Source: Deferribacterales bacterium (GTDB lineage: Bacteria; Chrysiogenota; Deferribacteres; Deferribacterales; Geovibrionaceae). From it: a DNA stretch of 64,000 nucleotides. Shown here piece after piece: positions 31,751-56,641 of the stretch. Position 1 is the stretch's first letter, and each line of letters begins with the position of its first letter. Made by a program: the position numbers and the translations under genes. The notes beneath the pieces are model-generated. The model was not told the origin of the DNA. It saw nothing but the letters and a program-made list of their open reading frames with translations, and did no database searches. The stretch spans positions 32,001 to 96,000 of the forward strand of contig JBFWLW010000003.1 of the NCBI GenBank assembly GCA_050251945.1, written 5' to 3'.

Positions 31751-32665
31751 TCTCTTTTTATCTCTGGCATAAGCCTTTTCTCCCGACTTCTGTGTCATGT
31801 TCCAGATAAAAGCATACCATGGCATCCTGTCCACCCATTTGCCCCTGCGTTTTGGCAACGCGACAGCATTTTCAGCACCACCAGTTGAAACATCCGCAAT
31901 TATTAAGCCTTCCTGCTGGTCAAGTCTCTCAATCACATTTCCGCCGCAGTCAGCGATGGCAGTCTGTCCGGCAAAAAAAGTATCCTGCAAAGGAAACCCG
32001 CTCGGCAGTTCCGTAACAAGCCTTCCGCACCTGTTCGCCATTACCGCAGGCACGCCAAGTACACGCGAATATAATGGAACAAGCCTTTTCAGCATATCGC
32101 AAAAAACTCTTATATCTCTTTTGGTGAAAGGGAACTTCGCCTGACTGTATGCGGCGGCGCTTGGCTGCAGAACGATATCCACCCCATTGTCATAAAAATC
32201 TTTCAGGCGGTCATAAAAAAGATTTTCGCCGCAAATGCCGATGCCGATACGACCTAAAGGCGTGTCTATTATGTGGGAGTTATCTTCATTTTTAAAAAGA
32301 TATGCCTCAACAGAGATCGGCGGACTCTTCTTAACTGTTCCGGCGATGTTTCCGTCCGGCTGAAACAGGTAAAACTTATTAAAGATGTCGCATCCTGAAA
32401 GTTCTATTATTGTCGTTCCGAGGTACACCCCGTACCTTTTTGCCATAGCTCCAAGTTTCGACACGGTTTCCCCGTTTTCCTTCTCTGCAAAATCCCATAT
32501 CTTTTCCGTAAGGTTATAACCGGAGACCGCAAGTTCCGGAAAAAGTATCAGCTGTGCGCCACTTTCGGACGCCTTGACAGCAAAAGATTCCATCTTCGCA
32601 AGATTACCGCTGACATCGCCGAAAACACTGTCCGTCTGAACAGCACAAACCTTTATCTGTTTCAT
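31733..32665 (-). CDS. Carbon-nitrogen hydrolase (nitrilase superfamily)
   Basis: Putative triad LFPE / K / GICGE and the N-terminal CAVQ strand. Confidence 0.85.
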   Translation of the reverse strand: MKQIKVCAVQTDSVFGDVSGNLAKMESFAVKASESGAQLILFPELAVSGYNLTEKIWDFAEKENGETVSKLGAMAKRYGVYLGTTIIELSGCDIFNKFYLFQPDGNIAGTVKKSPPISVEAYLFKNEDNSHIIDTPLGRIGIGICGENLFYDRLKDFYDNGVDIVLQPSAAAYSQAKFPFTKRDIRVFCDMLKRLVPLYSRVLGVPAVMANRCGRLVTELPSGFPLQDTFFAGQTAIADCGGNVIERLDQQEGLIIADVSTGGAENAVALPKRRGKWVDRMPWYAFIWNMTQKSGEKAYARDKKRLERFR

Positions 32666-35130
32666 ATTATCCTCTTAACTGTTCCGTTCCAGCCGTCAAC
32701 GAACAGTATTTCGCCGCTCTTTATTATATCTGTAGCCCTTTTTATGTTCATAATCGCCGGAATACCGTATTCTCGAGCCACGATAGCGCCGTGGGAAATG
32801 AATCCGCCCGTTTCAAGCACCAAAGCCGCTGCATCCACAAACAAAGGTGTCCATGAAGGGTCTGTGGACGGCGCAACAAGCACTCCGCCGCTCTTCATAG
32901 AGCCGCCCTCTGCCGGATGGAGGATCACACACGCCTCGCCTGTGGCTCTGCCGCAGGAAACGCTCATCCCATTCATTTCACTGCCGTCTGTCTCTGTCTC
33001 AGGCACATCGTACCCGCCCTCAACATAAACATCATCCGTCTGTAGCGTTTTCTGGTATTCGTAAAGCGTCCGTCTGTCCGCTGTAAGATTTTTCACCCAC
33101 TCTCTGCCGCCATTTAAGAGGATATCCGACATCTCTTCAAACGTGAGAAACCAGACATCATCGGCATCCGCAAGAACGCCATCCGCCGCAAGTCTTCTGC
33201 CGGATTCGAGCACCACACGCCTCATAACAGCGCTGAAACGGGCAAATACCGACTTCGCCATCTCTCTGTTTGCGCCGTCTTCGCCAGCCTGTTTCACCAT
33301 CTTCTTTATGATACCGTGCAGATAAAAAGGCACTTTTTCCCTGACAATCGCCCATGCCTCTTCCGAATTATTCTTCATGGGTTTTGGCGGGTTCTTTGCA
33401 TACTGCTGAACCATGTCCATAATGAACGATGCGTCTTCTGAAAATCTGGGGTTATACATATCAACTTCATAAACCCCTCTGTGTCCGTAATCCCGGAGCA
33501 TCTCAGCGAATTTCTGATCGAACTCCGTGGTTTCAAATACCTCCGCCAGCTCTTTTATACGCTGACCGAACTCAGCCGAAGTGATTCCGCCCAGACCCGC
33601 CAGAAGCGCCGATGTGAGCTGAAGTCCCTGACCTTTGCAGAATTTCTCCAGCATCGGAACAAGTGTAACAAAAACAGAACCGCTGGATGTGAGAAGCACA
33701 GTAATTTCGTTGTGCTTTTCCAGCATCACGCCAATCTCCCATGCCGTATCCACAAGTTTCCGCTTAACCATTCCGCTGAAATCCAAGTTTATTAGTCTGT
33801 CCGCATCCGCAACCGCCGAGGCGAATATCTCTTTAGAATTCTTCCGAGCTTTTTTCAGTGTGTTATAAAATTTCAGATTCCTTTTGAAACGGAGTAATTT
33901 TTTACCGAAACCTTCGTTTACAGGCAGTTTTATCTGCCCGTGGTGTCCGCCTATGAAAATATTATACATTTCCGGCTTAAACCCGAACGAGTCATAGCAC
34001 TCCCACTGGAGCACCGACACGTCAAAGTATGCTCTGCCGTTGATAAGCTTTGTCTTTCGCGTACTTTTATCCGGCTTATATCCTGTACATTCAATCTGCG
34101 CGTTAAGTATCGTATCTATGCTGGTACTGCATGTGCTCCAGTTCATCGGCGTCTGCACCATAGGGAGCGAATCGCGAAGATTGGCGTTACTCCACATGGC
34201 AGGCTGTGCAGTAATCTCCGGATAGCTGTATCTGTTCATCGCCGTCACCGGACGCGTCTGCACTATGTAAAACCTGCCGACGGAAAGCACCCACTCTATA
34301 TCCTGATGGACTGCCGAACCGCCGATGCGGCTGAAAATCTTTGAAACGATGCCGGAAAGTTCCAGCACCTGTTCCCTGTTCAGCACAAAGCTGTCAGAGG
34401 CTGACTCTTCCGATACCGTCCCGCCATCAGGATTAAAAACCGTCCTGACACCTTTTGAACCTTTGATGAATTCCACATCTCTTCCGCCGGTAACGATGTA
34501 TTCGTCCGGCTCGCAAACGCCAGAAACAACTGATTCGCCCAGCCCGAAGTTGGCGGAGATTATCTGCCTGTCCTCTCTGCCCGTGACAGGGTCACAGGAA
34601 AAGACAACACCTGCCGCATCTGCCGCAACAGTCTTCATCACAACAACAGCGATACCTATGTCAAAATCGGAAAAACCCATTTTATCTCTGTAGGTCACTG
34701 CTCTTCTGCTCCAAACGGACGCATAGCACATTTTGACTGCTGAAAGCACGTTTTCAATACCGGAAACATTCAGAAATGAATCGTGTATGCCGGCAAACGA
34801 TGCTCCGGCGGAATCCTCTGCGCTGACAGACGACCTCACGGCAAGGCTGACCATGCCGCCTGTATATTTTTCAGATGCGGCGGCAAGCGTCTCTTTGAAA
34901 CTATCAGGAAAATCTCCTGCGGTTATAAGCTTCTGAGCCGTATCTCTGTCCATTTTATCCCGCAATCCGTTGTGGTCGATGAACATTTCATATGCAGCAG
35001 CGGATATGACAAATCCGTCCGGAATATCTATGCCATATCTGCGAAGTCTGCCCAGATTAAAGCCCTTACCACCCGAAAATTCCGCTCCGGCGGTATATGC
35101 CTCTTCATATGAAAGAATAAATTCAGACAT
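32662..35130 (-). CDS. PEP-utilising family phosphotransferase with RPH/PigC-like domain order
   Basis: N-terminal ATP-grasp (GGKG, AVRSS..ED..SFAG, DIEW, QTRPVT), large central domain, C-terminal His swivel (TDPSWTP, SHGAIVAREYGIPA). Confidence 0.85.
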   Translation of the reverse strand: MSEFILSYEEAYTAGAEFSGGKGFNLGRLRRYGIDIPDGFVISAAAYEMFIDHNGLRDKMDRDTAQKLITAGDFPDSFKETLAAASEKYTGGMVSLAVRSSVSAEDSAGASFAGIHDSFLNVSGIENVLSAVKMCYASVWSRRAVTYRDKMGFSDFDIGIAVVVMKTVAADAAGVVFSCDPVTGREDRQIISANFGLGESVVSGVCEPDEYIVTGGRDVEFIKGSKGVRTVFNPDGGTVSEESASDSFVLNREQVLELSGIVSKIFSRIGGSAVHQDIEWVLSVGRFYIVQTRPVTAMNRYSYPEITAQPAMWSNANLRDSLPMVQTPMNWSTCSTSIDTILNAQIECTGYKPDKSTRKTKLINGRAYFDVSVLQWECYDSFGFKPEMYNIFIGGHHGQIKLPVNEGFGKKLLRFKRNLKFYNTLKKARKNSKEIFASAVADADRLINLDFSGMVKRKLVDTAWEIGVMLEKHNEITVLLTSSGSVFVTLVPMLEKFCKGQGLQLTSALLAGLGGITSAEFGQRIKELAEVFETTEFDQKFAEMLRDYGHRGVYEVDMYNPRFSEDASFIMDMVQQYAKNPPKPMKNNSEEAWAIVREKVPFYLHGIIKKMVKQAGEDGANREMAKSVFARFSAVMRRVVLESGRRLAADGVLADADDVWFLTFEEMSDILLNGGREWVKNLTADRRTLYEYQKTLQTDDVYVEGGYDVPETETDGSEMNGMSVSCGRATGEACVILHPAEGGSMKSGGVLVAPSTDPSWTPLFVDAAALVLETGGFISHGAIVAREYGIPAIMNIKRATDIIKSGEILFVDGWNGTVKRII

Positions 35131-35716
35131 CCGACGCCCCCGAAAGAAACAGCTCTATCATCCTGTCCAGCTCTGCGTAAAGGTCGTCACCATCGTTTTT
35201 CAGCCAGCGCATGATGACGTTACGATAGAACGATTCCATATAGTCCACCAGCTCCTCTGAGCTGAAATCGCCTCTCAGTTCGCCATTTTCTATCCCTGCC
35301 TGCATTACCTTCTGAAGGTTCTGATGAAACCCGCTGCGATTTTCAGGCTCCATGCTGCCGTTCGTAATGTTTTGAAGCCTGTATGAAAGATAGATGGCAA
35401 GAATGTCTTTGTGCGAAACCTGCCAGTCAGCAACCACATAATAAAGTTTTTTTAGTTTTTCCTTAACGGGCATTTCACCCACAGCAAGTTCTTCCACATG
35501 TGCCCGCATGTCAACAGAGCACTGACGGAAATATCCTGCAACAACCGCCTCTTTAACGGGAAAATAGTTATACAATGTGCCCTTTGCCACGTCCGCCGTG
35601 CTGGCTATCTGCTCCATTGACACACTGTCAAAGCCATACTCATAAATAAGCTTCATACCTACGCTGATTATGTGCCTTCTGGTCTCTTCTTTTTTTCTTT
35701 CGCGTCTTCCTTCCAT
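35123..35716 (-). CDS. TetR-family regulator
   Basis: RRERKK..GFDSVSMEQIA..ADVAKGTLYNYF HTH. Confidence 0.92.
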   Translation of the reverse strand: MEGRRERKKEETRRHIISVGMKLIYEYGFDSVSMEQIASTADVAKGTLYNYFPVKEAVVAGYFRQCSVDMRAHVEELAVGEMPVKEKLKKLYYVVADWQVSHKDILAIYLSYRLQNITNGSMEPENRSGFHQNLQKVMQAGIENGELRGDFSSEELVDYMESFYRNVIMRWLKNDGDDLYAELDRMIELFLSGASDV

Positions 35717-35946: not shown

Positions 35947-37287
35947 TTGGAACAGTTTGAGAACATCCTAAATATCATCGGAGGCTTTATCTGGGGCGTT
36001 CCGCTCCTTGTGCTTCTGGTTGGAACAGGCATCTACCTTACATTAAATCTTCGTTTTCTTCAGTTTACTAAACTTTTCTATGCTCTTTGGCTTGCACTTG
36101 TTAAACGTAAAGAGTACGACGACGAACCCGGCGACATCACGCACTTTCAGGCACTCATGACGGCAATGTCCGCAACTGTCGGCACAGGCAACATCGCAGG
36201 TGTTGCCACGGCGATAGCTTTGGGCGGTCCCGGCGCAATGTTCTGGATGTGGGTGACAGGTCTTGTGGGCATGGCGACAAAATACGCGGAAGCGGTTCTT
36301 GCCGTTAAATACCGCGAAGTTGACGAAAACGGCAATATGAGCGGCGGTCCCATGTATTACATTTCAAACGGTCTCGGCTGGAAATGGATGGGCGCGCTGT
36401 TCGCAGTGTTCGCTGTTGTAGCCTCTTTCGGGATAGGAAACATGGTTCAGGCAAACTCCGTTGCCGACGCTCTTCGCTCAACATTCAACGTCCCGACCTA
36501 TGCAACGGGTCTTGTGCTGATGGCATTCACCGCTCTGGTTGTCCTTGGCGGTATCAAATCCATCGGCAGGGTCACAAGTATTCTCGTACCTATCATGATA
36601 ATCTTTTATGTAATAAGCGCACTTATCATACTTGTTATGTTCGCGGACAAGATACCCGCGGCATTCGCACTTATTTTTGCAGAGGCGTTCACCCCCACGG
36701 CGGCATCAGGCGGCTTCGCTGGGGCAAGCGTTATGATGGCTATCCGTATGGGTGTTGCCAGAGGAGTGTTCTCCAACGAATCCGGTCTGGGCAGTGCGCC
36801 CATCGCGGCGGCGGCAGCTCAGACAAAGCACCCCGTTTCGCAGGCGCTGGTCTCCATGACTCAAACGTTCATCGACACACTGATAGTCTGTACAATGACA
36901 GGTCTTGTGCTTATCTGCACAGGCGCATGGGATATAGGCAAAAACGGAGCTGATCTTACAAACCACGCTTTCTCACTCGGATTTTCCGCGGGTCCGGTAG
37001 TGGTTGCCATAAGCCTTGCACTGTTCGCATATTCCACCATACTCGGCTGGTGCTATTACGGTGAAAAGTCCATGGAATATCTGTTCGGCGTGAAATCCAT
37101 TACACCTTACAGAATAATTTTCATCCTCTTCATCGGCGTCGGCGCCATGGCAAAACTGAACATCGTCTGGCTGCTTTCGGACATTTTCAACGGGCTGATG
37201 GCTCTGCCCAACCTTATAGGTCTTCTGGGTCTCTCTTCCGTTGTCTTTGCGGAAACGAAAGACTATTTTGCCAATTTAAAAAAATAA
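35947..37287 (+). CDS. Alanine/glycine:cation symporter (AGCS family)
   Basis: [26 protein letters not shown] and [14 protein letters not shown] start after AAGGAGG. Confidence 0.95.
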
Positions 37288-37302
37288 TTTACTGATAAAT
37301 AT

Positions 37303-37331
37303 GGCGGTCAGCCTTTCTGACCGCCTTTTTT
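37303..37331 (+). terminator. Intrinsic terminator
   Basis: GGCGGTCAG-CCTTT-CTGACCGCC followed by T6. Confidence 0.85.
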
Positions 37332-37342
37332 CGTTCTAAATC

Positions 37343-37406
37343 ATTACTGATATTCAATTTCAGCTTAGAAAAAACGTTGACTTTTTGTGTTCGCAGTGCT
37401 TAACAT
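37343..37406 (+). promoter_or_regulatory. Fur-like box and sigma70 promoter of the fez-like operon
   Basis: ATTACTGATATTCAATTTC matches the Fur consensus at 13/19 (37343-37361). TTGACT (37377) and TAACAT (37401) are 18 bp apart. Confidence 0.5.
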
Positions 37407-37478
37407 TGAATAAGCGTTCGGGTTGACACATTAACAAATCTGCTCCCTTTCGGGCTTAGGGCGCACAGGACGGTTAGT

Positions 37479-39626
37479 GTGTTAAAGATTGCTCATTCCG
37501 CCCCCGACAGGGTAAGGCTTAAATATCCCATTCTCAGACAAGAGCAAAGTCTTTGCTCATCCATAATCAGCGTCCTTTCATCGAAACAGGGCATATCATC
37601 AGTGCGGTGCAACAGAAAATGCGCAAGCCTTATCGTTGCGTACGATGCTTCTGTCCTCTCCGTTTCGGATATCGTCAACGCAGTTTCAGGCATAAAACCC
37701 GTTAAACTGGTACCGGCCGAATCCGTAAAGGCAGACTGTGCGTGTTCCGATGCGAAGGACGGGCTGGCTCTTCTCAACAAAAAAACCGAGTTTGCCGCGC
37801 TCACCGCGATGACAGGCGCTTCGTTCATTTCAAAGCGGTTGTTCGGACGCGTCCTTTCTCAGGCTGTGTTCAGCCCCATGTGGTTCTTTACGGCATTCTT
37901 CGCGGCACCCCTTGTTTACACCGCCGTATCGAAAACACTGAAAGACAAAAAGATCGGACTGGACGCGTTTCTCGGAGCCGGCGTCGGCGCGGCACTTCTG
38001 ACAGGCGAAACCATGACAGCCCTTGAAATCCTCTGGGTGAACAGCGGCGCGGAACTCATGCAGGAACACATCACCGAAAAATCCCGCGCATCCATAAAAA
38101 ATATTCTGGACGTGACCGCAAAAACAGCCTTCGTTCTTATCAACGGGCGGGAGCTTGAGGTTCCCGTGGAAAAGGTTGAACAGGGCGCAACGGTAATTGT
38201 CCGCACCGGAGAAAAGATATCGGTGGACGGTGAGATTATCCGCGGCGAGGCGATGGTGAACGAAGCTCCCATAAACGGGCGTCAGGAACTGATCCACAAA
38301 ATAAAATCCGAAGGGGTTTATGCCGGAACTTACGTTCAGGACGGACTCATATACATCCGCGCGGACAGAGTCGGCGACAGCACATATCTTGCGCGCATAC
38401 TGCAGGCGGTGGAAACATCACTGGAGAACAAAGCGCCTATTGAGCTTGAAGCGGATAAACTCGCCAAAAAACTGGTGGGACTTGGATTCATCATGACCGC
38501 CGGAACCTTCCTGCTGACACGCAGTCTGTCCAGAACACTTTCGGTCATGCTCGTTATGACCTGTCCCTGTGCGACTGCACTGGCGGCATCGTCCGCAGTG
38601 AGCGCATCCATAGGCAATGCGGCTTCCAAGGGAGTTCTCATCAAAGGCGGCCGCTATCTTGAGGACGCTGGCGAACAGGAATCATTCTGTTTTGACAAAA
38701 CTGGAACCATAACCACAGACATGCCTGAGGTCATAGACATCTATCCGCTGAAAGGCTGGTCGGAACAGGATCTTCTCATGAGGGCATACGCTGCGGAACT
38801 GCACAACCGTCACCCCATGGCGGCGGCAATACGCAAAAAGGCGGAACAGCTCTGTCTGGAAAAACCCGACCACGCGGTATGCGAAACCATTCTGGGCATG
38901 GGCGTTGCGGCGGACACCGCAGAAGGCACCGTGTGCGTGGGCAACAGAAAACTTATGGACAGGTTCAGCATAAAAACAGGCACAGTGAAAAAACGTGCCG
39001 AAAAATGGGCGGAAGAGGGCAAAAGCGTCCTTTATGTTGCGGAAGACAGCAGACTGCTGGGGATAATCTCCATCCGCACCAGAGACAAAGAGGGCGTTGC
39101 AGAAATGATACAGACACTGCGCAAAGACGGCGTAAAAAATCTCATAATGGTAACGGGCGACGAAAGGCAGTCTGCGGAACCGCTGGCACTGCGTCTGGGT
39201 TTTGACGAATGTCACTATTCCGTTCTGCCGCAGGACAAGGCGGACATCATCCGCAATATACAAAAGGATCACAAGGTCGCAATGATAGGCGACGGCATCA
39301 ACGACGTTCTGGCGCTGGCACAGTCAGATCTGGGCATCGCCATGGGCGTGGCAGGTTCCGACGTTGCCGTTGAAGCGGCAGACATAGCTCTGGTGGACGA
39401 CGATCTGAACAAGATAATCTTCCTGCGTCAGCTCAGTAAAAAAACAAAAACGATAATACATCAGAATTTTTCCCTGGCAACATCAACCAACATCGCAGGC
39501 GCCATCCTCGGCGCTGTGGGCATACTGAACCCGGTTATGGCGGGGCTTCTGCACATAGCCCACACAGGCGGCATTATGGCGAACTCATCCCGGCTTATGA
39601 ACTATGACGGAGAAACAAATGATTGA
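37479..39626 (+). CDS. fezH: P1B-type ATPase, FezH-like (second ATPase of large fez clusters)
   Basis: N-terminal R-rich HSAPDRVRL, TCPC, DKTGT, GDGIND and C-terminal HIAHT. It leads an operon containing a P1B-6 ATPase. The symbol rests on context. Confidence 0.7.
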   Translation: MLKIAHSAPDRVRLKYPILRQEQSLCSSIISVLSSKQGISSVRCNRKCASLIVAYDASVLSVSDIVNAVSGIKPVKLVPAESVKADCACSDAKDGLALLNKKTEFAALTAMTGASFISKRLFGRVLSQAVFSPMWFFTAFFAAPLVYTAVSKTLKDKKIGLDAFLGAGVGAALLTGETMTALEILWVNSGAELMQEHITEKSRASIKNILDVTAKTAFVLINGRELEVPVEKVEQGATVIVRTGEKISVDGEIIRGEAMVNEAPINGRQELIHKIKSEGVYAGTYVQDGLIYIRADRVGDSTYLARILQAVETSLENKAPIELEADKLAKKLVGLGFIMTAGTFLLTRSLSRTLSVMLVMTCPCATALAASSAVSASIGNAASKGVLIKGGRYLEDAGEQESFCFDKTGTITTDMPEVIDIYPLKGWSEQDLLMRAYAAELHNRHPMAAAIRKKAEQLCLEKPDHAVCETILGMGVAADTAEGTVCVGNRKLMDRFSIKTGTVKKRAEKWAEEGKSVLYVAEDSRLLGIISIRTRDKEGVAEMIQTLRKDGVKNLIMVTGDERQSAEPLALRLGFDECHYSVLPQDKADIIRNIQKDHKVAMIGDGINDVLALAQSDLGIAMGVAGSDVAVEAADIALVDDDLNKIIFLRQLSKKTKTIIHQNFSLATSTNIAGAILGAVGILNPVMAGLLHIAHTGGIMANSSRLMNYDGETND

Positions 39627-39915
39627 GGAACTTCTTGCAGTAAAAAAATATGTCTCGGTGGTACATCACGTCGAAGGGCGAATCAGACTTAAGATCGACC
39701 CCGCAATTATGAAAGACCCGGTCAGCAAGAGACTGGAAGAGATAAGCGCGTCCATACCGGGCGTGCTGGATAAGCGTATCAACATGCTGGCGCGTTCCGT
39801 TGTTCTGCGGTACGACCCCGCGGTTATACATCCGGTGGACATGGCGGCGCTTTTCGGGACATCCGACAGCGAAAGTCTGGCAATACTTAAAAAGTACGAA
39901 GATTTTATAAGTTAA
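39619..39915 (+). CDS. Stand-alone HMA-like (R-rich) domain protein of the fez cluster
   Basis: VVHHVEGRIRLK..N..ARSVVLRYD matches the N-terminal motif of both ATPases. GGAG RBS before ATG 39619. Confidence 0.75.
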   Translation: MIEELLAVKKYVSVVHHVEGRIRLKIDPAIMKDPVSKRLEEISASIPGVLDKRINMLARSVVLRYDPAVIHPVDMAALFGTSDSESLAILKKYEDFIS

Positions 39916-40004
39916 TGAGATAGCTTCGTTGCTTACACTCCTCGCGAAGACCGTAATTTATCCGTCTCTGCGAGGAAGCGTTCAGGCTGACGCGGCAGTC
40001 TCAT
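39915..40004 (-). repeat. Palindromic MITE-core copy inside the fez-like operon
   Basis: ATGAGATAGCTTCG..CCTCGCGAAGAC..GTCTCTGCGAGG..GCAGTCTCAT. Confidence 0.7.
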
Positions 40005-40044
40005 CTCACTGATCAGAATCAAAAAAATATAAAAGGAGGGTTTT

Positions 40045-40620
40045 GTGGAAAACAAAGAAACAAACGAAACACAGTCCGGAAACCCTGAACAGGAAACGCC
40101 TGAACAGGCACAACAGGGCTTCGGACAGGAAGCTCAGGGACAGTATATGGGTGGACCGGAAATGCAGAACCCATATATGGCAGGTCCTCAGATGCAGCAG
40201 CCGTTCATGGGCAATCCATACATGTATAACCCGTATATGTATCCGCCCCCCGGTTATCCGCCGATGCAGGGCTATGCACCCTATCCGCCGTTCCCGCCGT
40301 ATATGCCGCCTTATCCGCCGCAATACGGTTTTCAGCCTGCACCGCCCCAGCCTCTCAATGAGGAACATTGCGGACACCATCAGCAGGAAGACCCGATGAA
40401 CGGCATAATGGGCATGTTCGGACAGATGATAGAGGGCAACCCCCAGCTTTCTGAGGTCAGCAGGATGGTTAACGCCACAGGCAGCGACTTCATCAAGGGT
40501 CTGGTGATGGGCGCAGGACTGGCGATGCTTTTAAGCAGTGAATCGGTGCGTTCGGCACTGAGCGATATTCTCGGCAAAACAGTAAGCATGTTCACAGAGG
40601 ATTCGGAGGAACAGATATGA
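40045..40620 (+). CDS. Small membrane protein with Q/P/Y/M-rich low-complexity N-terminus and GxxxG helix
   Basis: GTG start after AGGAGG, PY-rich tract, EEHCGHH, FIKGLVMGAGLAMLL. Confidence 0.75.
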   Translation: MENKETNETQSGNPEQETPEQAQQGFGQEAQGQYMGGPEMQNPYMAGPQMQQPFMGNPYMYNPYMYPPPGYPPMQGYAPYPPFPPYMPPYPPQYGFQPAPPQPLNEEHCGHHQQEDPMNGIMGMFGQMIEGNPQLSEVSRMVNATGSDFIKGLVMGAGLAMLLSSESVRSALSDILGKTVSMFTEDSEEQI

Positions 40621-40943
40621 GTAAACATATAGGATCATCAATCGGCAGGGCAACGGTATCCGGCGCTCTGGCAGGCGCGGTCATCGGCGGCGCGGTGTCT
40701 GCGGCAAAGCAGACGAAAGATTACAAAGCGGGCAGGATAACAAAAGAAGAAGCAGCAGAAAACGTGGTTAAAGAAGCTGCCGGAACAGGTATCGCCACAG
40801 CGGCGGGCGTTGCCGCGGCAAGCATGTTCGGCTTCGGGATATTCATGTCCCTCATAGCCTTCACCGCAGCGTCCGCAGGCGCGAAATATCTTTGGGATTC
40901 ATCAGTTAAACCGTCAAATACAGCAACAGTTAAGGAGAGCTAA
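40617..40943 (+). CDS. Gly/Ala-rich GxxxG small membrane protein (MamC-like, fez accessory type)
   Basis: SGALAGAVIGG, AGTGIATAAG, AKYLWD. ATGA-coupled to the upstream gene. Confidence 0.75.
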   Translation: MSKHIGSSIGRATVSGALAGAVIGGAVSAAKQTKDYKAGRITKEEAAENVVKEAAGTGIATAAGVAAASMFGFGIFMSLIAFTAASAGAKYLWDSSVKPSNTATVKES

Positions 40944-40945
40944 TC

Positions 40946-41263
40946 ATGGAACAGCAAAAAGCACCCGAAGCAGGACAGGGACAACAGCAGCAGCATTACT
41001 ACGCACCCCAGTATGCACAGCAGGCATACTATCCCCAGCAGCACACAGCCGCAAGCCATCTTAAAGAGTGGTTCAACTTCCGCGAGCCGTCATATGTCAA
41101 AGGTTTTGTTATCGGCGCAGGCGTTGCACTTGTTCTCACAAACCCCGCAGTTAAAAAAGCCATCGTAAAAGGCGTTGTAAAACTCTGGGGCGGTCTGCAG
41201 GGCGGAGTTGAAGAGCTGAAAGAGCAGATAAGAGACGTTCAGGCGGAGATGGGCGGAGAGTAA
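40946..41263 (+). CDS. YtxH-like small membrane protein with Q/Y-rich N-terminus and GxxxG
   Basis: YVKGFVIGAGVALVLTNP plus a C-terminal coiled coil. Its core resembles the 40045 protein. Confidence 0.75.
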   Translation: MEQQKAPEAGQGQQQQHYYAPQYAQQAYYPQQHTAASHLKEWFNFREPSYVKGFVIGAGVALVLTNPAVKKAIVKGVVKLWGGLQGGVEELKEQIRDVQAEMGGE

Positions 41264-41264
41264 T

Positions 41265-41462
41265 ATGCCGGAGGAAAAAAGAATAAGCCCCATGCAGAAA
41301 AAACGCAGATACGCCAAGTATGCCATGACGGCGGCACTGGGAGTTCTCGTTGTGTCGGGGTTTCAGAAGGGTAAATCTGCAAGACAGCTCCACGTTGCCA
41401 CAGGCGCGGCGCTGGTTGGTCTGGCGATATACCATACATCCCTCTACAAAAACAGGTCATGA
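41265..41462 (+). CDS. Small 2-TM protein with intramembrane His residues
   Basis: RQLHVATG..AIYH. It overlaps the next ATPase by ATGA and has RBS GGAG. Confidence 0.65.
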   Translation: MPEEKRISPMQKKRRYAKYAMTAALGVLVVSGFQKGKSARQLHVATGAALVGLAIYHTSLYKNRS

Positions 41463-43561
41463 CGAAGAAAAAACACTATCCTACGGGATTTGAAAGCGTG
41501 AGCATAGCTCACAAAACTGACAGCAGAATTCGTCTTAAGGCGGGGGTGCTCGGCAACCCCGCCCTTGACTGTACACTTCTGGAATCCACTCTGGAGTGTA
41601 TAAACGGCGTAACAGCAGTCCGCGTCAATCAGCGCGCCAATACCCTTGTGGTGGAACACGAAAAGGGCAGAGAAATAACCGAACCGCTCCTTTCCACACT
41701 GCAGACCTTTTCCCATGCCGTCTTTCAGGCGGAAGAGGAACTTGTGGACTCCCCCGACCTGATAAACGTCTATTGGGCGGGTTCCATGTGGCTTTCAAAG
41801 CTGGTTCTGCCGCAGTGGTTCCGTACGCCGCTGACATTTGCGGGCGCGGCTCCCGTTCTTCTGAAAGGGATAGACACCCTTGTAAACGACGGTCTGAAGG
41901 TTGAAGTTCTTGATGCGGCAGTTGTGTCCATGCTCCTTATGCGCAGGGATTACTTCACAGCCGGTTCCATCACTTTTCTGCTGAACCTCGGACATTATCT
42001 TGAGGCATCAACCCAGTACAAATCCGACAGAATGCTGAAAAGCCTCATAAAACCGGACGTCGAGTACGTCTGGATTCTGGACGGACAAACCGAAAAAAAG
42101 GTACCCATCGGCGAAGTGCTTGTTGGAAGCCACGTCATCATAGGCGCAGGGGAGATGATACCCGTAGACGGTATCGTAAAAGGCGGCGAAGGGCTTATCA
42201 ATCAGGCATCCGTAACAGGCGAAAGCCTCCCCGTTACAGCGGGATACAACAGTGAGGTGTATGCCGGAACTGTTGTTGCGGAAGGGAAACTCATAATCGA
42301 AGCGCGGAAGGTGGGCGCTGAAACCACCACCGCCAGAATCGCAAAATTCATCAGTAATTCACTTAAAAACCGTTCCAACACAGAGGTGCAGGCTTTTAAA
42401 ATTGCCGACAGGATGGTTCCTGTCACCTTCGGCATAGGGCTTGGCACTCTCCTGCTCACGCGGGATTTCCGCAGGGCATCGTCGGTGCTTTCAGTTGACT
42501 ACTCATGTGCGCTGAAACTGGTCACACCCACAGCAATAAAATCCAGCATGTACTGCGCCGCATCCGAAGGCATCTTCATAAAGGGCGCGCAGTCTCTTGA
42601 AAACATGGCGAAGATCGACACTATAATATTCGACAAGACAGGAACGCTGACTAAAGGAACCCTTGAGGTGTCGGATATCTTAAGTTTTTCGGATATGGAT
42701 GAGCGGGAAATCCTGAGAACCGCCGCCAGTGCCGAAGAACATTACAGTCACCCCATTGCGGCGGCTGTCGTTAAAGAAGCTGAAAAAAAGAACATTTCCC
42801 TTGAGGAAACAGGGGAAGTGGACTTCATCATAGCCCACGGCGTTTCGGCGTACGTCGGCAAAAAACACGTTCTGGCAGGAAGCAGACACTTCATCCATGA
42901 AGATGAACACATCGACTGCTCTCTTGCGGACGACACAGCGGATAAACTGCGTAAAACGGGCAAAAGTATCCTGTATGTGGCATGCGACGGCGTGCTTGCA
43001 GGCATCATAGCCCTTAAAGACGTACCGAGAAACGAATCAGCACAGGTCATCAAAGACCTGAAAAAGCGGGGCATAGACCGCGTTGTCATGCTGACAGGCG
43101 ACCACAGGGATACGGCGAATCACATAGCCAAAGAACTGGGCATCAAAGAAGTATATTTTGAGATGAAGCCTGAAGACAAACTGGACGTTGTGAACAAATT
43201 TAAATCGGAAGGGCGCAGGATAGCCTTTGTAGGCGACGGGGTGAACGACGCTCCGGCTCTGCTCTCCGCTCACGTCGGCATCAGCATGCCCGAAGGCGCA
43301 GACCTTGCGCGGGAAACATCCGACGTTATCCTTCTGCGCAACGACCTGCGGGGTATACTCACAGCGCGCATCACCGCGGAACGCACCATGAAGGTCATAA
43401 AAAGGGTATCCGTTGCAAACATCGGCATCAACACAGTTACGGTGCTTCTGTCCGTTATGGGACGCATCAGCCCGCTGCAATCCGCCGTTATGCACAACGG
43501 AACAACCCTTGGAACACTGCTTTATGCTCTGAGCCTTTCCCAGAGCGGGAGAACACAATGA
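41459..43561 (+). CDS. fezB: P1B-6-type ATPase (FezB-like ferrosome iron transporter)
   Basis: R-rich HKTDSRIRL, TGES, DYSCA, DKTGT, GDGVND and HNGTT (HNxxT). Confidence 0.85.
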   Translation: MTKKKHYPTGFESVSIAHKTDSRIRLKAGVLGNPALDCTLLESTLECINGVTAVRVNQRANTLVVEHEKGREITEPLLSTLQTFSHAVFQAEEELVDSPDLINVYWAGSMWLSKLVLPQWFRTPLTFAGAAPVLLKGIDTLVNDGLKVEVLDAAVVSMLLMRRDYFTAGSITFLLNLGHYLEASTQYKSDRMLKSLIKPDVEYVWILDGQTEKKVPIGEVLVGSHVIIGAGEMIPVDGIVKGGEGLINQASVTGESLPVTAGYNSEVYAGTVVAEGKLIIEARKVGAETTTARIAKFISNSLKNRSNTEVQAFKIADRMVPVTFGIGLGTLLLTRDFRRASSVLSVDYSCALKLVTPTAIKSSMYCAASEGIFIKGAQSLENMAKIDTIIFDKTGTLTKGTLEVSDILSFSDMDEREILRTAASAEEHYSHPIAAAVVKEAEKKNISLEETGEVDFIIAHGVSAYVGKKHVLAGSRHFIHEDEHIDCSLADDTADKLRKTGKSILYVACDGVLAGIIALKDVPRNESAQVIKDLKKRGIDRVVMLTGDHRDTANHIAKELGIKEVYFEMKPEDKLDVVNKFKSEGRRIAFVGDGVNDAPALLSAHVGISMPEGADLARETSDVILLRNDLRGILTARITAERTMKVIKRVSVANIGINTVTVLLSVMGRISPLQSAVMHNGTTLGTLLYALSLSQSGRTQ

Positions 43562-44244
43562 AACTGTCCGATGCAAAAAGCGGAGGCTTTTATAAAGTTA
43601 TGTCCGTGAAAGACGCCGAACTCGCCCGCAGGCTGGGTGCATACGGCATATTTGCGGGAACCATCGTTTCAAAGGTTGGCAGAGGCGACATAGAACTGGC
43701 AACGCTGAAAATATCCGTGAACGAAGTTACGAAGGCACTCAGCGGATCGCTGGCGAGGCATCTCTTCTATAAATCGCCATCTGGCGAAAAACGCAGCATC
43801 TATGAACATGAAACAGGTCTGGATTTCACCGTGGTTGTCCCGAAAACCGCGGCTAGTGATATGACAAAACTCGGTATAAAAGGCGGGGACACTATACAGG
43901 TTATAAAGAAGCTTCCGCATATGGAATACATCACCCTCGTCGGACACAAAACAAGATGCCGTCTTTCGGAAGCACACGCAGCATGTATTCTGGGCGACGG
44001 AAAACAGTTCTCTTTCGCATCAAAAAACAAGGATTTCATAGTCGACGAACTTTTGAGTCAGGAGACCTATGGTCAGGTCATGTCCGTTAACGGCATACAG
44101 AAAGGCACGCAGCTGACCCTTGAGGGTATCGAAACGGGGAAATCCGTCCATCTGGACGACTATCCCGACATGGTCATATGCACGGCGCAGGGGCTTAGGG
44201 TGTTCATATCCGAAAGCACTGCTGAAAAAATAAACGCCGAATAA
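43558..44244 (+). CDS. FeoA-domain (SH3-like) repeat protein
   Basis: MKLSD..G..KV...RRLGAYGIFAG, with the pattern repeated in MTKLGIKGGDTIQV and NGIQKGTQL. Confidence 0.65.
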   Translation: MKLSDAKSGGFYKVMSVKDAELARRLGAYGIFAGTIVSKVGRGDIELATLKISVNEVTKALSGSLARHLFYKSPSGEKRSIYEHETGLDFTVVVPKTAASDMTKLGIKGGDTIQVIKKLPHMEYITLVGHKTRCRLSEAHAACILGDGKQFSFASKNKDFIVDELLSQETYGQVMSVNGIQKGTQLTLEGIETGKSVHLDDYPDMVICTAQGLRVFISESTAEKINAE

Positions 44245-44268
44245 ATTTTTCCCTTGAAATCAATGCGG

Positions 44269-44287
44269 GATAATGATATTCATTATC
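44269..44287. promoter_or_regulatory. Near-consensus Fur box
   Basis: GATAATGATATTCATTATC is 18/19 to GATAATGATAATCATTATC. TTGAAA at 44254 could serve as -35. Confidence 0.85.
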
Positions 44288-44346
44288 AACATTGCCCGTT
44301 TGGCATTTTAACGGGGTGCCCGAGCGGGCTTTCGGCACTATTTTCC
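44288..44346 (+). ncRNA. Candidate Fur-repressed small RNA
   Basis: Lies directly after the Fur box and ends in a GTGCC..GGCAC hairpin plus TATTTT. No convincing ORF. Confidence 0.3.
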
Positions 44347-44534
44347 ACGATTGTCAACCCAACGCTAACTGGACGAAATCTCCGATTTCAGACCATCGCA
44401 GAATGCCTTAAGCCCGTACCCCGACCACAATGTAATTATATGATTTTCTAAATATATCTCAAACGTTTTCTTTGAACTTGCGGTCACATCACTTCACACC
44501 GATATTAGTTAAACCAGCCGTACGGAGGTTAACT

Positions 44535-44969
44535 ATGAAAGATACTATCAAAGCCGGAACAACTGCAGAAATTGAATTAACCGTGAATGAAAATAAGACG
44601 GTTCCGAATCTCTATCCGGAATCAAATCTTTTCTCAACCATGCCAAGGGTTTTTGCGACCGGCTATATGGTGGGCTTTCTGGAATGGGCATGTATGGAAG
44701 CGCTGGCGCCCCATCTGGACGTGGGTGAACAGAGCGTCGGCACCAATGTGAACGTGACCCACTGCGCCGCGACTCCCGTGGGCATGAAGGTTCGCGCAAA
44801 AGCCGTATGCACCGGAGTGGACGGACAGAAGACGTCGTGGGAAGTGGAAGCATGGGACGAAAAGGAACTGATCGGAAAAGGAACCCACGAGCGCTTCACC
44901 ATAAATACAGACAGATTCAACATCAAGATGGCAAAAAAGTCCAACCCGCTGCTCAGGCTTAACTGCTGA
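44535..44969 (+). CDS. Hot-dog thioesterase (fluoroacetyl-CoA thioesterase FlK-like)
   Basis: VFATG..E..C, SVGT..THCAATPVG, GTHER. RBS GGAGG. Confidence 0.85.
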   Translation: MKDTIKAGTTAEIELTVNENKTVPNLYPESNLFSTMPRVFATGYMVGFLEWACMEALAPHLDVGEQSVGTNVNVTHCAATPVGMKVRAKAVCTGVDGQKTSWEVEAWDEKELIGKGTHERFTINTDRFNIKMAKKSNPLLRLNC

Positions 44970-45051
44970 GATTCGCTGTTGACTATGGCGGCTTTTTTCA
45001 TTATCTTAATCACAGATAACGCATGTCTCTAATATCTTAAAGGGTGAAAAC

Positions 45052-45423
45052 ATGATAAACGACACATTTAAAGAGGTTTTAAAGAACGAAGGAGTGGTTT
45101 CCATAGTAACATGGGGAAAGGGCGAAGCAAACGTTGTAAACACATGGAACTCATACGTTGTACTTACGGGCGACAACAGACTTCTTATACCGGCGGCGGG
45201 AATGACAAGCACAGAGGGAGACCTTGCCGTTAACGGCAGAGTAAAACTCACACTGGGCAGCAAAAACGTTCAGGGGCTTTTCGGCATGGGTACGGGATTC
45301 AGAGTGGAAGGAACAGCGAAGCTGGTTTCGGAAGGTGCCGAATACGAAATGATGCAGGCGAAATATCCGTTTCAAAGGAAGATGCTGGAAATAACACCTG
45401 AACTGGTTAAACAGACGGTATAG
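45052..45423 (+). CDS. FMN-binding split-barrel protein (pyridoxamine 5'-phosphate oxidase-like)
   Basis: EGVVSIVTW, NTWNSY, LIPAAGM and GTGF motifs. Confidence 0.8.
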   Translation: MINDTFKEVLKNEGVVSIVTWGKGEANVVNTWNSYVVLTGDNRLLIPAAGMTSTEGDLAVNGRVKLTLGSKNVQGLFGMGTGFRVEGTAKLVSEGAEYEMMQAKYPFQRKMLEITPELVKQTV

Positions 45424-45452
45424 AAAAAGGTACCTTGCGGCAGTGAGAATTC

Positions 45453-45594
45453 TCGAACTGATGACAACGTCAGGAAAATGCGAGATCGCGTCGTCGCGTG
45501 CGCTCCTCGCGAAGATAAAAACCTTCTCTGCGAGGGTTTGAACCCGAAGCAGTCTTAATGCGAGCTGTGTAAATTTAGTTTGTCAACAACCTGA
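45453..45594 (-). mobile_element. ~142-bp MITE-like element, copy 2 (reverse orientation)
   Basis: Close reverse complement of copies 1 and 3. Abuts the hairpin AGACCTCCCG-TCAG-CGGGAGGTCT. Confidence 0.75.
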
Positions 45595-45603
45595 GACCTC
45601 CCG

Positions 45604-55482: not shown

Positions 55483-55836
55483 ATGCCTGATTTCGGGAAT
55501 TCGTTCAGCGGACTGCAAAACGACAGAAAACTGACAGACAAAGAACTTATCAGAGCGATAAGGTTCATGGTTGCCGCAGAGTATGAGGCTATCCAGCTTT
55601 ACGAGCAGCTTGCGGAATCCACAGACAACAAGCTGGCTCAGCAGGTACTCTTGGACATTGCGGATGAGGAAAAAGTGCATGCAGGTGAATTTCTGAGGCT
55701 GCTTAAAGCTTTGGCACCGGATGAAGAAGGCTTTTATCAGCAGGGTTATGCAGAGGTTGAAGAAGAATTTTTATCAGGTTCTGCGGAAACAGACCCTAAA
55801 GACGGCGGTCTGGGAATCGGAAGCCTGAAGAAATAA
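55483..55836 (+). CDS. Encapsulin cargo ferritin-like protein with C-terminal targeting peptide
   Basis: EYEAIQLY / DEEKVH di-iron motifs and C-terminal GGLGIGSLKK. Confidence 0.9.
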   Translation: MPDFGNSFSGLQNDRKLTDKELIRAIRFMVAAEYEAIQLYEQLAESTDNKLAQQVLLDIADEEKVHAGEFLRLLKALAPDEEGFYQQGYAEVEEEFLSGSAETDPKDGGLGIGSLKK

Positions 55837-55846
55837 GGAGAGATTT

Positions 55847-56641
55847 ATGAATTTCTTAAGAAAGGAATTCGCTCCTATAAGCGAAGAAGCATGGAAAGAG
55901 ATAAACAGACAGGCAAAAGACACTCTTATGGCTAACCTGTCTTCAAGAAAATTTGTAGATGTTGACGGACCCAAAGGGCTGGATTTTTCAGCAGTAAGCC
56001 TTGGAAGGCTGTTCCTGCCGAAAGCGCAGAAAGGAGCCGTTAAATACGGCATCAGCACTATCCTGCCGTTGATTGAGATAAGAACCCCGTTTTCCCTCGG
56101 GCTTTGGGAACTGGACAACATAGAGAGAGGCGCAAAGGACATTAACCTCGACCCGCTGACAGAAGCCGCAAAACAGACGGCGACTTTTGAAGAAACGGCT
56201 GTTTATCACGGATTCAAAGAGGGCGGGATATCAGGGATTAACCAACTTAATGTTCAGAAGGTTGCAATCTCACTTGATAAGGACAGCGTTACAGACGCGG
56301 TTACGGAAGCTTTGGCGATGATGCGCAAAGAAGGCGTGGCAGGCGGCGCAAACCTTGTGGTCAATCAGGAACTCTGGAAGTTCCTTGCGCACGTGTTTCC
56401 CGGCGGCACGCTGGGCGATACAATTAAAAACCAGATAGGCGGTTCCATTATCTATTCCGGTTTCGTTGACGGAGCGGTGCTCGTTTCCGCACGCGGAGGC
56501 GATGCAGAGCTTACGGTGGGACAGGATTTTGCCATCGGGTACACAAGCCACGATTCAGATAACATCAATCTGTTCGTGACCGAATCTTTCACTTTCAGGG
56601 TAGTCAACCCTGAAGGTTTTATCAGATTTGCAATTCAATAG
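55847..56641 (+). CDS. Family 1 encapsulin shell protein (linocin M18 / HK97 fold)
   Basis: LRKEFAPIS..AW..I, RKFVDVDGP.G, ELTVGQDFAIGY, ESFTFRV. 264 aa, following a cargo gene. Confidence 0.95.
   Translation: MNFLRKEFAPISEEAWKEINRQAKDTLMANLSSRKFVDVDGPKGLDFSAVSLGRLFLPKAQKGAVKYGISTILPLIEIRTPFSLGLWELDNIERGAKDINLDPLTEAAKQTATFEETAVYHGFKEGGISGINQLNVQKVAISLDKDSVTDAVTEALAMMRKEGVAGGANLVVNQELWKFLAHVFPGGTLGDTIKNQIGGSIIYSGFVDGAVLVSARGGDAELTVGQDFAIGYTSHDSDNINLFVTESFTFRVVNPEGFIRFAIQ

Follow-up and report, generated by a model that had tools for sequence, protein, structure and literature searches.

The locus described here is a ferrosome (fez)-like operon located in a 64,000-nt window, which is the whole stretch of DNA analysed; coordinates are positions in this window and refer to the plus strand unless stated otherwise. 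The host (genome of 3.07 Mb, 99.97% complete) is Seleniivibrio (Deferribacterota), and the closest named record for the protein encoded at 41459 comes from a Seleniivibrio metagenome-assembled genome (98% identity). An eight-gene operon at 37479-44244 had been proposed in the first-pass annotation, and all eight open reading frames (ORFs) were found in the sequence, on one strand (Table 1, proteins are named below by their start coordinates). Tight coupling was likewise seen at six of the seven junctions, the spacings being -23, 129, -4, 2, 1, -4 and -4 bp. The only loose junction (39916-40044) measures about 130 bp in the loci L001 and L003 and 10-12 bp in L002 and L004, and it may be a small inserted repeat.

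Table 1. Genes and candidate regulatory features of the fez locus.
Feature	Position	Strand	Remarks
Weak Fur-like 7-1-7 box	37348..37362	+	3 mismatches; 15 bp upstream of the predicted -35
Predicted sigma-70 operon promoter, TTGACT-18-TAACAT	37377..37406	+	9/12 (chance level alone); start near 37412-37413
fezH leader	37412..37485	+	Predicted free 5' toehold, 13-bp stem, inner hairpin with UUCG loop
FezH-type P1B-ATPase, 715 aa	37479..39626	+	R-rich HMA_2 head, CPC, DKTGT, HxxHT; TGE reads NGR (Arg268)
Stand-alone R-rich HMA_2 protein, 103 aa	39604..39915	+	Homologues (E 1e-16 to 1e-5) in other fezB clusters
Pro/Tyr/Gln-rich protein, 191 aa	40045..40620	+	C-terminal KGLxxGAG anchor; hits in L075 and L060
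MamC-family GxxxG membrane protein, 108 aa	40617..40943	+	Homologues in L075, L062 and L060
GxxxG membrane protein, 105 aa	40946..41263	+	Homologues elsewhere annotated "YtxH domain" directly before fezB
Hairpin protein, 65 aa	41265..41462	+	His43 and His57 invariant in 13/13 aligned homologues
FezB-type P1B-6 ATPase, 700 aa	41459..43561	+	R-rich head, TGES, DYSCA, DKTGT, HNGTT
FeoA-fold protein, 228 aa	43558..44244	+	Pfam FeoA domain and FeoA-fold model
Candidate promoter TTGAAA-17-TATTCA (TG extension, weak -10)	44254..44287	+	Overlapped by Fur box
Conserved structured non-coding element, candidate antisense activator RNA	44312..44426	+	About 115 nt
Convergent promoter-like site TTGAGA-16-TATAAT	44435..44462	-	Would transcribe the opposite strand of the element

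The protein 41459 is a P1B-ATPase carrying, as noted earlier, the DYSCA and HNxxT motifs (DYSCA at aa 347 and HNGTT at aa 679). Its N-terminal R-rich motif reads HKTDSRIRL, and the catalytic motifs TGES, DKTGT, HP, TGD and GDGVND are intact. According to the preprint of Grant and Komeili (bioRxiv 10.1101/2020.01.10.902569), the combination of D[Y/F]SCA with HNxxT defines the FezB/P1B-6 group. In a maximum likelihood tree of 45 rows, 41459 was placed in a 17-row clade of D[YF]SCA/HNxxT proteins with a support of 100/100; it stood apart from E. coli ZntA, S. aureus CadA and CopA, and thus did not join the Zn/Cd/Co exporters, the grouping that would have refuted the ferrosome reading of the first-pass annotation. 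The Glu of the TGE loop is present in 120/120 FezB sequences (the fused record P0029 was excluded from this set and from the FezH set of the same size). It counts against the assignment that the FezB references in the tree are defined by motifs, with no proven FezB (from D. magneticus, S. putrefaciens, R. palustris or C. difficile) among the rows.

The R-rich head is shared more widely. FezB, FezH and a CtpC-like pump encoded beside a DUF1490 gene form an R-rich superclade (96/100), CtpC of M. tuberculosis has been termed P1B-6-like, and small membrane partners accompany the pump in the CtpC-PacL effluxosome as well (PMC13460109). The proteins could accordingly make up a metal-efflux platform in the plasma membrane instead of an organelle, which we consider quite unlikely. 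CtpC is a CPC+HN pump with a DUF1490 partner and serves zinc efflux at the cell membrane (PMC13460109), whereas 41459 has D[YF]SCA instead of CPC and belongs to a separate 100/100 clade. Furthermore, no small protein of the operon matched DUF1490 in Pfam or the DUF1490 gene of L165, and the candidate Fur control described below points to low iron and not to metal excess.

The first gene of the operon encodes a second P1B-ATPase, in which the expected CPC and HxxHT motifs were located as TCPCA at aa 361 and HIAHT at aa 692. In the tree it lies in its own 11-row clade (100/100), whose membrane motifs are CPC and HxxH[TS]; this agrees with FezH, the second R-rich P1B-ATPase of large fez clusters, whose membrane metal sites are distinct. 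The first-pass annotation overlooked that the actuator loop of this protein reads NGRQE, with Arg at the position of the TGE Glu, which departs from a canonical cycling ATPase. Among the query and 119 homologues, this column contained Arg in 103/120 and Glu in 2/120 sequences. In a diverse set, 34 of 150 representatives were FezH-type by membrane motifs alone, and the 31 of them covering the column had Arg (29), Asn (1) or Gln (1) and no Glu, whereas the sister groups had Glu in 20/20 and 30/30. The main text of the Grant and Komeili preprint makes no mention of this change.

The TGES loop is described as the intrinsic phosphatase of P-type ATPases (PMC10654040, PMC8880997), and the E183R variant of SERCA is reported to accumulate E1P, to form no E2P and to be uncoupled (PMC2268108). 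Because Arg replaces the catalytic Glu, FezH is probably no ordinary pump, and based on its sequence we favour a non-cycling partner or sensor over a second pump. Since the phosphorylation and nucleotide motifs are intact and the structure model has the P1B fold, it may be a partner that is phosphorylated and cycles poorly. Two features weigh against such a role: DKTGT, HP and GDGxND are kept in 120/120 sequences, and an acidic residue two positions past the Arg, found in 114/120, could partly replace the missing Glu. With its conserved replacement of Glu by Arg, FezH offers a natural way to test if a P1B-ATPase can act as a non-pumping partner. A metagenome scan, whose patterns were too generic, gave FezH in 2 of 80 loci. 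Six hits of 1600-1700 aa (P0264, P0266, P0289, P0292, P0304 and P0309) were considered as FezH-FezB fusions and rejected, each consisting of a degenerate R-rich P1B half and a P2-type pump (AIPEG/AVPEG).

The HxxxxR(I/V)RL motif, earlier noted in both ATPases and in the stand-alone HMA-like protein, was confirmed in all three, and the three genome-wide matches to Pfam HMA_2, the R-rich domain, are all inside the fez operon. The 103-aa protein 39604 is likely a soluble chaperone-like, FezD-like type. It should be noted that the Fez letters given here to small proteins follow the descriptions in the preprint and not a sequence comparison with the named proteins. The claim of small GxxxG membrane proteins held for 40617 and 40946, where the motif lies in a hydrophobic segment (hydropathy >1.5). 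In 40045, a paralogue of 40946 according to cross-hits with the 40946 family, it lies in the homologous segment, but the hydropathy is below the 1.5 cut-off. The 65-aa protein 41265 is not of the GxxxG type and is instead a hairpin with two invariant His residues.

The protein 40617 matched the NCBIfam MamC model NF038051 with E 6e-17 and 61.7 bits, under the 100-bit cut-off, and its Atlas neighbours carry PF26373 (MamC). Judged by its sequence, it is a MamC homologue at the family level and not an equivalog; it also differs from magnetosome MamC in being encoded in a fez cluster, by the only MamC-type gene of the genome. FezC binds haem as a dimer (PMC10979944). Since its two invariant His residues match this haem-binding type, 41265 likely has a haem b site of the FezF/FezC-membrane type by analogy. 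It shares with the FezC/DUF4405 cytochromes b of that report a membrane hairpin and a conserved pair of His through which a dimer could bind haem, but it is a stand-alone protein of 65 aa with no HMA domain and no DUF4405 hit in the Pfam search.

For the last protein, 43558, described earlier as a FeoA-repeat protein, the FeoA part stood: Pfam found one FeoA domain (aa 1-70), and VIA-align recognised a FeoA fold in the structure model (Z 10.4, with about 70 aa superposed at rmsd 1.8-2.6), while Foldseek gave no match at E 0.001 or better. The repeat was not recovered by BLAST of the first third against the remainder. In the model, the FeoA match extends over residues 1-228, of which about 70 are aligned, and other SH3-like hits lie at 46-120 and 121-195. 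This pattern suggests three nested or circularly permuted modules, so that the protein is probably composed of three SH3-like modules.

According to Grant and Komeili, larger fez clusters are extended by FezH, a second R-rich ATPase, as well as by GxxxG proteins and proteins of the FezC-membrane-like and FeoA-domain types. The earlier use of FezB, FezH and GxxxG/R-rich proteins as markers of ferrosome clusters agrees with their preprint. The present operon matches this published layout and is not a new type of cluster: it shares with the large clusters a D[Y/F]SCA/HNxxT FezB, a second R-rich ATPase, an R-rich soluble protein, GxxxG, FezC-membrane-like and FeoA-domain proteins, and an anaerobic host. 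GxxxG and R-rich proteins stand beside fezB, and other fezB clusters contain homologues of the accessory genes. Unlike the clusters of the preprint, the operon has no DUF2202 ferritin-like gene; as far as its main text goes, no FezH-containing cluster was tested there, and that text has neither the change in the TGE loop nor a small RNA (sRNA) or antisense element (0 hits for TGE, sRNA or antisense). Based on gene content, we consider it probable that the operon builds ferrosomes, i.e., iron-phosphate organelles. The cluster would extend ferrosomes to Seleniivibrio and offers a compact FezH-containing operon for tests.

FezB-type genes were found in 29 of the 68 genomes of the phylum and FezH-type genes in 11, the host included; the other FezH carriers coincide with the 10 of 15 family relatives in which a close FezB occurs. 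The eight genes keep an identical order in all 10 distinct family relatives with FezB (11 loci, two of them gene-identical). The distant contig L075 has the first six operon genes in the same order, and in the Vibrio locus L060 fezB is preceded by homologues of four operon genes (HMA, Pro-rich, MamC-like and 40946). Other arrangements were also seen. Genomes of family f10 (L046 6090-12575, L045 and L047) contain a FezB-only cluster with a ferritin-like GxxxG gene, directly followed by feoAB in L046, and families f6 and f7 (L048-L056, L023) have a minimal arrangement of fezB and an HMA gene. The fezB match contained in-frame stops in 4 of the 29 genomes.

Fur-like boxes had been reported at both ends of the operon. 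The downstream box (44269-44287) is strong: it matches at 18/19 positions and is among only three sites with one mismatch or less in 3.07 Mb. Weaker boxes before feoB-like and flavodoxin-like genes (read from N-terminal sequence) suggest that the Fur consensus used is valid in the host genome, which has four Fur-family genes and Hfq. The upstream box is weak and alone not above chance, its level (up to three mismatches to the 7-1-7 form) being reached at 404 genomic sites; it has 1-3 mismatches in five of the six relatives with the leader described below, and none was found in L038. The comparisons over seven genomes that follow refer to the window and these six relatives, which represent about three independent lineages.

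At the upstream end, TTGAC of the operon -35 is invariant in 7/7 aligned sequences. The transcript is predicted to begin with a structured leader in which 37423-37435 pairs with 37473-37485, burying the GTG start of fezH. The fold has a z of -3.16 and is identical in 7/7 genomes. Two stretches of the leader are of importance below, site A (37413-37428) and site B (37449-37455).

At the downstream end, the Fur box lies 23-25 bp past the feoA stop, with a TTG at a fixed distance, in 7/7 genomes, and it is followed by a structured element that folds better than 200/200 shuffles (z -4.17) and whose closing stem shows compensatory changes among the seven genomes. Three downstream contexts were seen, and in each of them the box and the element remain beside fez. 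A role of the box as promoter of the thioesterase gene was rejected, as the downstream gene differs in L004 and L038 and the box and element persist; a small ORF across the element (44254-44451) was also rejected, its frame being broken by indels of 1, 2 and 5 bases in relatives. Based on the sequence, the box more likely controls a separate RNA than marks the operon end. Two other near-perfect boxes (0 and 1 mismatch) are located at G000:C16:55518, before a dehydrogenase-like gene, and at C14:11099, between regulator-like and hydrolase-like genes, and could head further small RNAs.

Rfam had no match over the element, only eight weak matches far below gathering scores being found in 36500-45600. 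A covariance model found the element in its seven training genomes alone and not in the other 61 genomes of the phylum, five family members without fez included. The RNA model had no match in 16 other fez loci, and neither the element nor the leader motif was found in four genus-g3 genomes with the fez operon.

The element is complementary to the fezH leader at two places. Its most conserved stretch, the loop 44352-44366, is the complement of site A with one bulge; at site B, the leader loop is matched by the complementary bulge 44318-44324 of the element. Both carry a single compensatory change: in L004 an A:U pair of site A is replaced by G:C, and in L038 a C:G pair of site B by U:A. Site A gives the best compact element-leader helix in 7/7 genomes (-23.3 to -24.5 kcal/mol), and equally good helices were obtained from 0, 0, 6, 7, 4, 0 and 1 of 100 shuffles. 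In a seed-free screen, which counted only the element's opening cost, fezH took rank 2 among 2602 gene starts with the plus strand (-18.5; mean -4.6, sd 2.3) and rank 531 with the minus strand; with a hand-picked seed, site A ranked 3 of 2605. Site B is open in the leader (0.0-2.3 kcal/mol). In the model, occupancy of site A lowers the opening cost of the ribosome site from 14.3 to 5.6 kcal/mol in the window sequence, and by 3.2-8.7 kcal/mol across 7/7 genomes. Both parts of an anti-antisense arrangement are thus present, namely a predicted stem that hides the initiation region and a candidate RNA complementary to its blocking strand.

The top competitor in the target screen, C4:155522, is rich in G.U pairs and falls at an upstream start, probably a miscalled one, within an array of tandem repeats; it was treated as chance. 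The array (G000:C4:147471-157413) comprises about ten near-identical proteins of 115-190 aa around a 496-aa gene. They resemble Nif11-like leaders, and the array is possibly one of precursors of ribosomally synthesised and post-translationally modified peptides.

Based on these results, it seems rather probable that the element is a Fur-repressed sRNA that activates translation of the operon when iron is scarce. We suggest the following scheme. In the presence of iron, Fur on the 18/19 box at 44269 would keep the RNA off, and the fezH start codon would be hidden in the predicted leader hairpin. In the absence of iron, the RNA would be made. It could then pair with the leader twice, through its free bulge GCCCGAG with the loop UUCGGGC and through its loop UGUCAACCCAACGCU with the first 16 bases. 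In the model, this pairing peels off the anti-start stem, so that fezH and the coupled downstream genes would be translated. By analogy with published clusters, FezB would pump Fe(II) into vesicles, the GxxxG/MamC-family proteins would give these vesicles their shape, the proteins of the R-rich HMA and FeoA-fold types may serve as adaptors, and the two-His protein may be a haem redox element. FezH, with its Arg in place of Glu, would be the non-cycling partner or sensor.

Several results weigh against this reading of the element. The two compensatory changes are thin evidence, because the seven sequences represent about three independent lineages, and site B alone ranked 595 of 2605 in the hand-picked seed screen. 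When wide windows including the AT-rich promoter DNA were used, the complementarity was clear in only 3/7 genomes (0, 0 and 1 of 60 shuffles as good; 6, 6, 13 and 50 of 60 in the others), and the hit in L038 was not at site A. Co-folding of whole molecules, which cannot model kissing pairs, gained 0 to -3.0 kcal/mol for the plus strand and -1.0 to -5.7 kcal/mol for the minus strand. In addition, the plus strand has a weak -10 and lacks a terminator at the end of the element, and the minus strand has both the better promoter and the more stable consensus fold (-32.5 vs -26.3).

The wide-window result speaks for the idea that the complementary stretches are a chance match or inverted repeats at the DNA level (an invertible cassette or paired protein sites), and they do flank the operon as an imperfect 15-bp inverted repeat. 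Yet the orientation is the same in all seven assemblies, both stretches lie inside the folded elements with their sites single-stranded in both, and the unpaired leader base varies (C or A), which makes this explanation highly improbable.

The lack of a terminator-like site between the feoA stop and the element, together with a promoter scan that found no consensus plus-strand promoter, would suit an element that is the 3' tail of the fez mRNA, made by read-through past a Fur roadblock and acting in cis or after processing as positive feedback. We regard this as improbable: a TTG(A/C)(A/T)A hexamer is kept at a fixed 17-bp spacing from the TG-extended hexamer in 7/7 genomes, and a tail 7 kb away could hardly open the first gene during transcription.

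The properties of the minus strand could mean that the RNA started at the convergent promoter (44462-44435) is the working one, either titrating a leader-binding factor as a decoy or acting as a sponge that sets a threshold for the plus-strand RNA. It would carry same-sense copies of both leader motifs, its start would fall at the element's edge in the five genomes where the promoter scores 11/12, and one U.G pair at its 5' end is possible only on the minus strand. This remains an unlikely reading, since the promoter score drops to 9 in L004 and 8 in L038, the two most distant genomes, the Fur box would sit at the far end of the RNA, and no helix between the minus strand and the leader is preferred; moreover, it is pairing and not protein binding that would be expected to yield matching changes in leader and element.

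The preferred scheme, a Fur-repressed sRNA acting on the fezH leader, fits the Fur repression of ferrosomes in C. difficile, where fur mutants are reported to form them constitutively (PMC13307979). Its logic is that of the anti-antisense activation of shiA by RyhB, in which an inhibitory leader is opened, and as with DsrA and RprA on rpoS, the ribosome site would be exposed (PMC13501541); like RyhB, the candidate would be an sRNA of iron limitation. It differs from these RNAs in having no Rfam or sequence match and in being encoded right behind its target operon. Furthermore, it resembles a degenerate inverted copy of the leader, has two pairing sites, is highly folded and apparently has one dedicated target. 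Among literature titles on ferrosomes with sRNA or Fur, on Seleniivibrio or Denitrovibrio with small RNA or ferrosomes, and on non-coding RNA of Deferribacterales, none describes such an RNA. The element is a candidate iron-responsive sRNA in Deferribacterota, for which these titles showed none. It offers a concrete and cheap experiment on how lack of iron induces an iron-storage organelle.

A more speculative and rather doubtful extension is that an inverted leader copy evolved into a Fur-repressed two-site antisense activator, with the convergent counter-transcript as a threshold, so that the operon would carry an iron switch of its own. The gene unlocked first would be fezH, coding for a pseudo-pump throughout its family (TGE to TGR) that may gate or scaffold FezB. 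Ferrosomes of D. magneticus appear when iron returns. If the proposal is true, the folded RNA could outlast starvation and act as a memory that licenses organelle assembly as iron returns, and this would be the first example, within the literature searched, of a ferrosome operon controlled post-transcriptionally.

Other genes of the window are worth noting. An encapsulin shell gene (NF041155, 248 bits) and a gene for an EncB-family ferritin-like cargo (NF058679, 102 bits) were found at 55483-56641 on the plus strand, 11 kb from the fez operon, representing a second, protein-shelled iron store; the host genome has three ferritin-family matches. On the minus strand, 32662-35716 encodes a PEP-utilising phosphotransferase of the PRK06241/rifamycin-phosphotransferase superfamily (scores all below the cut-off), together with a TetR regulator.

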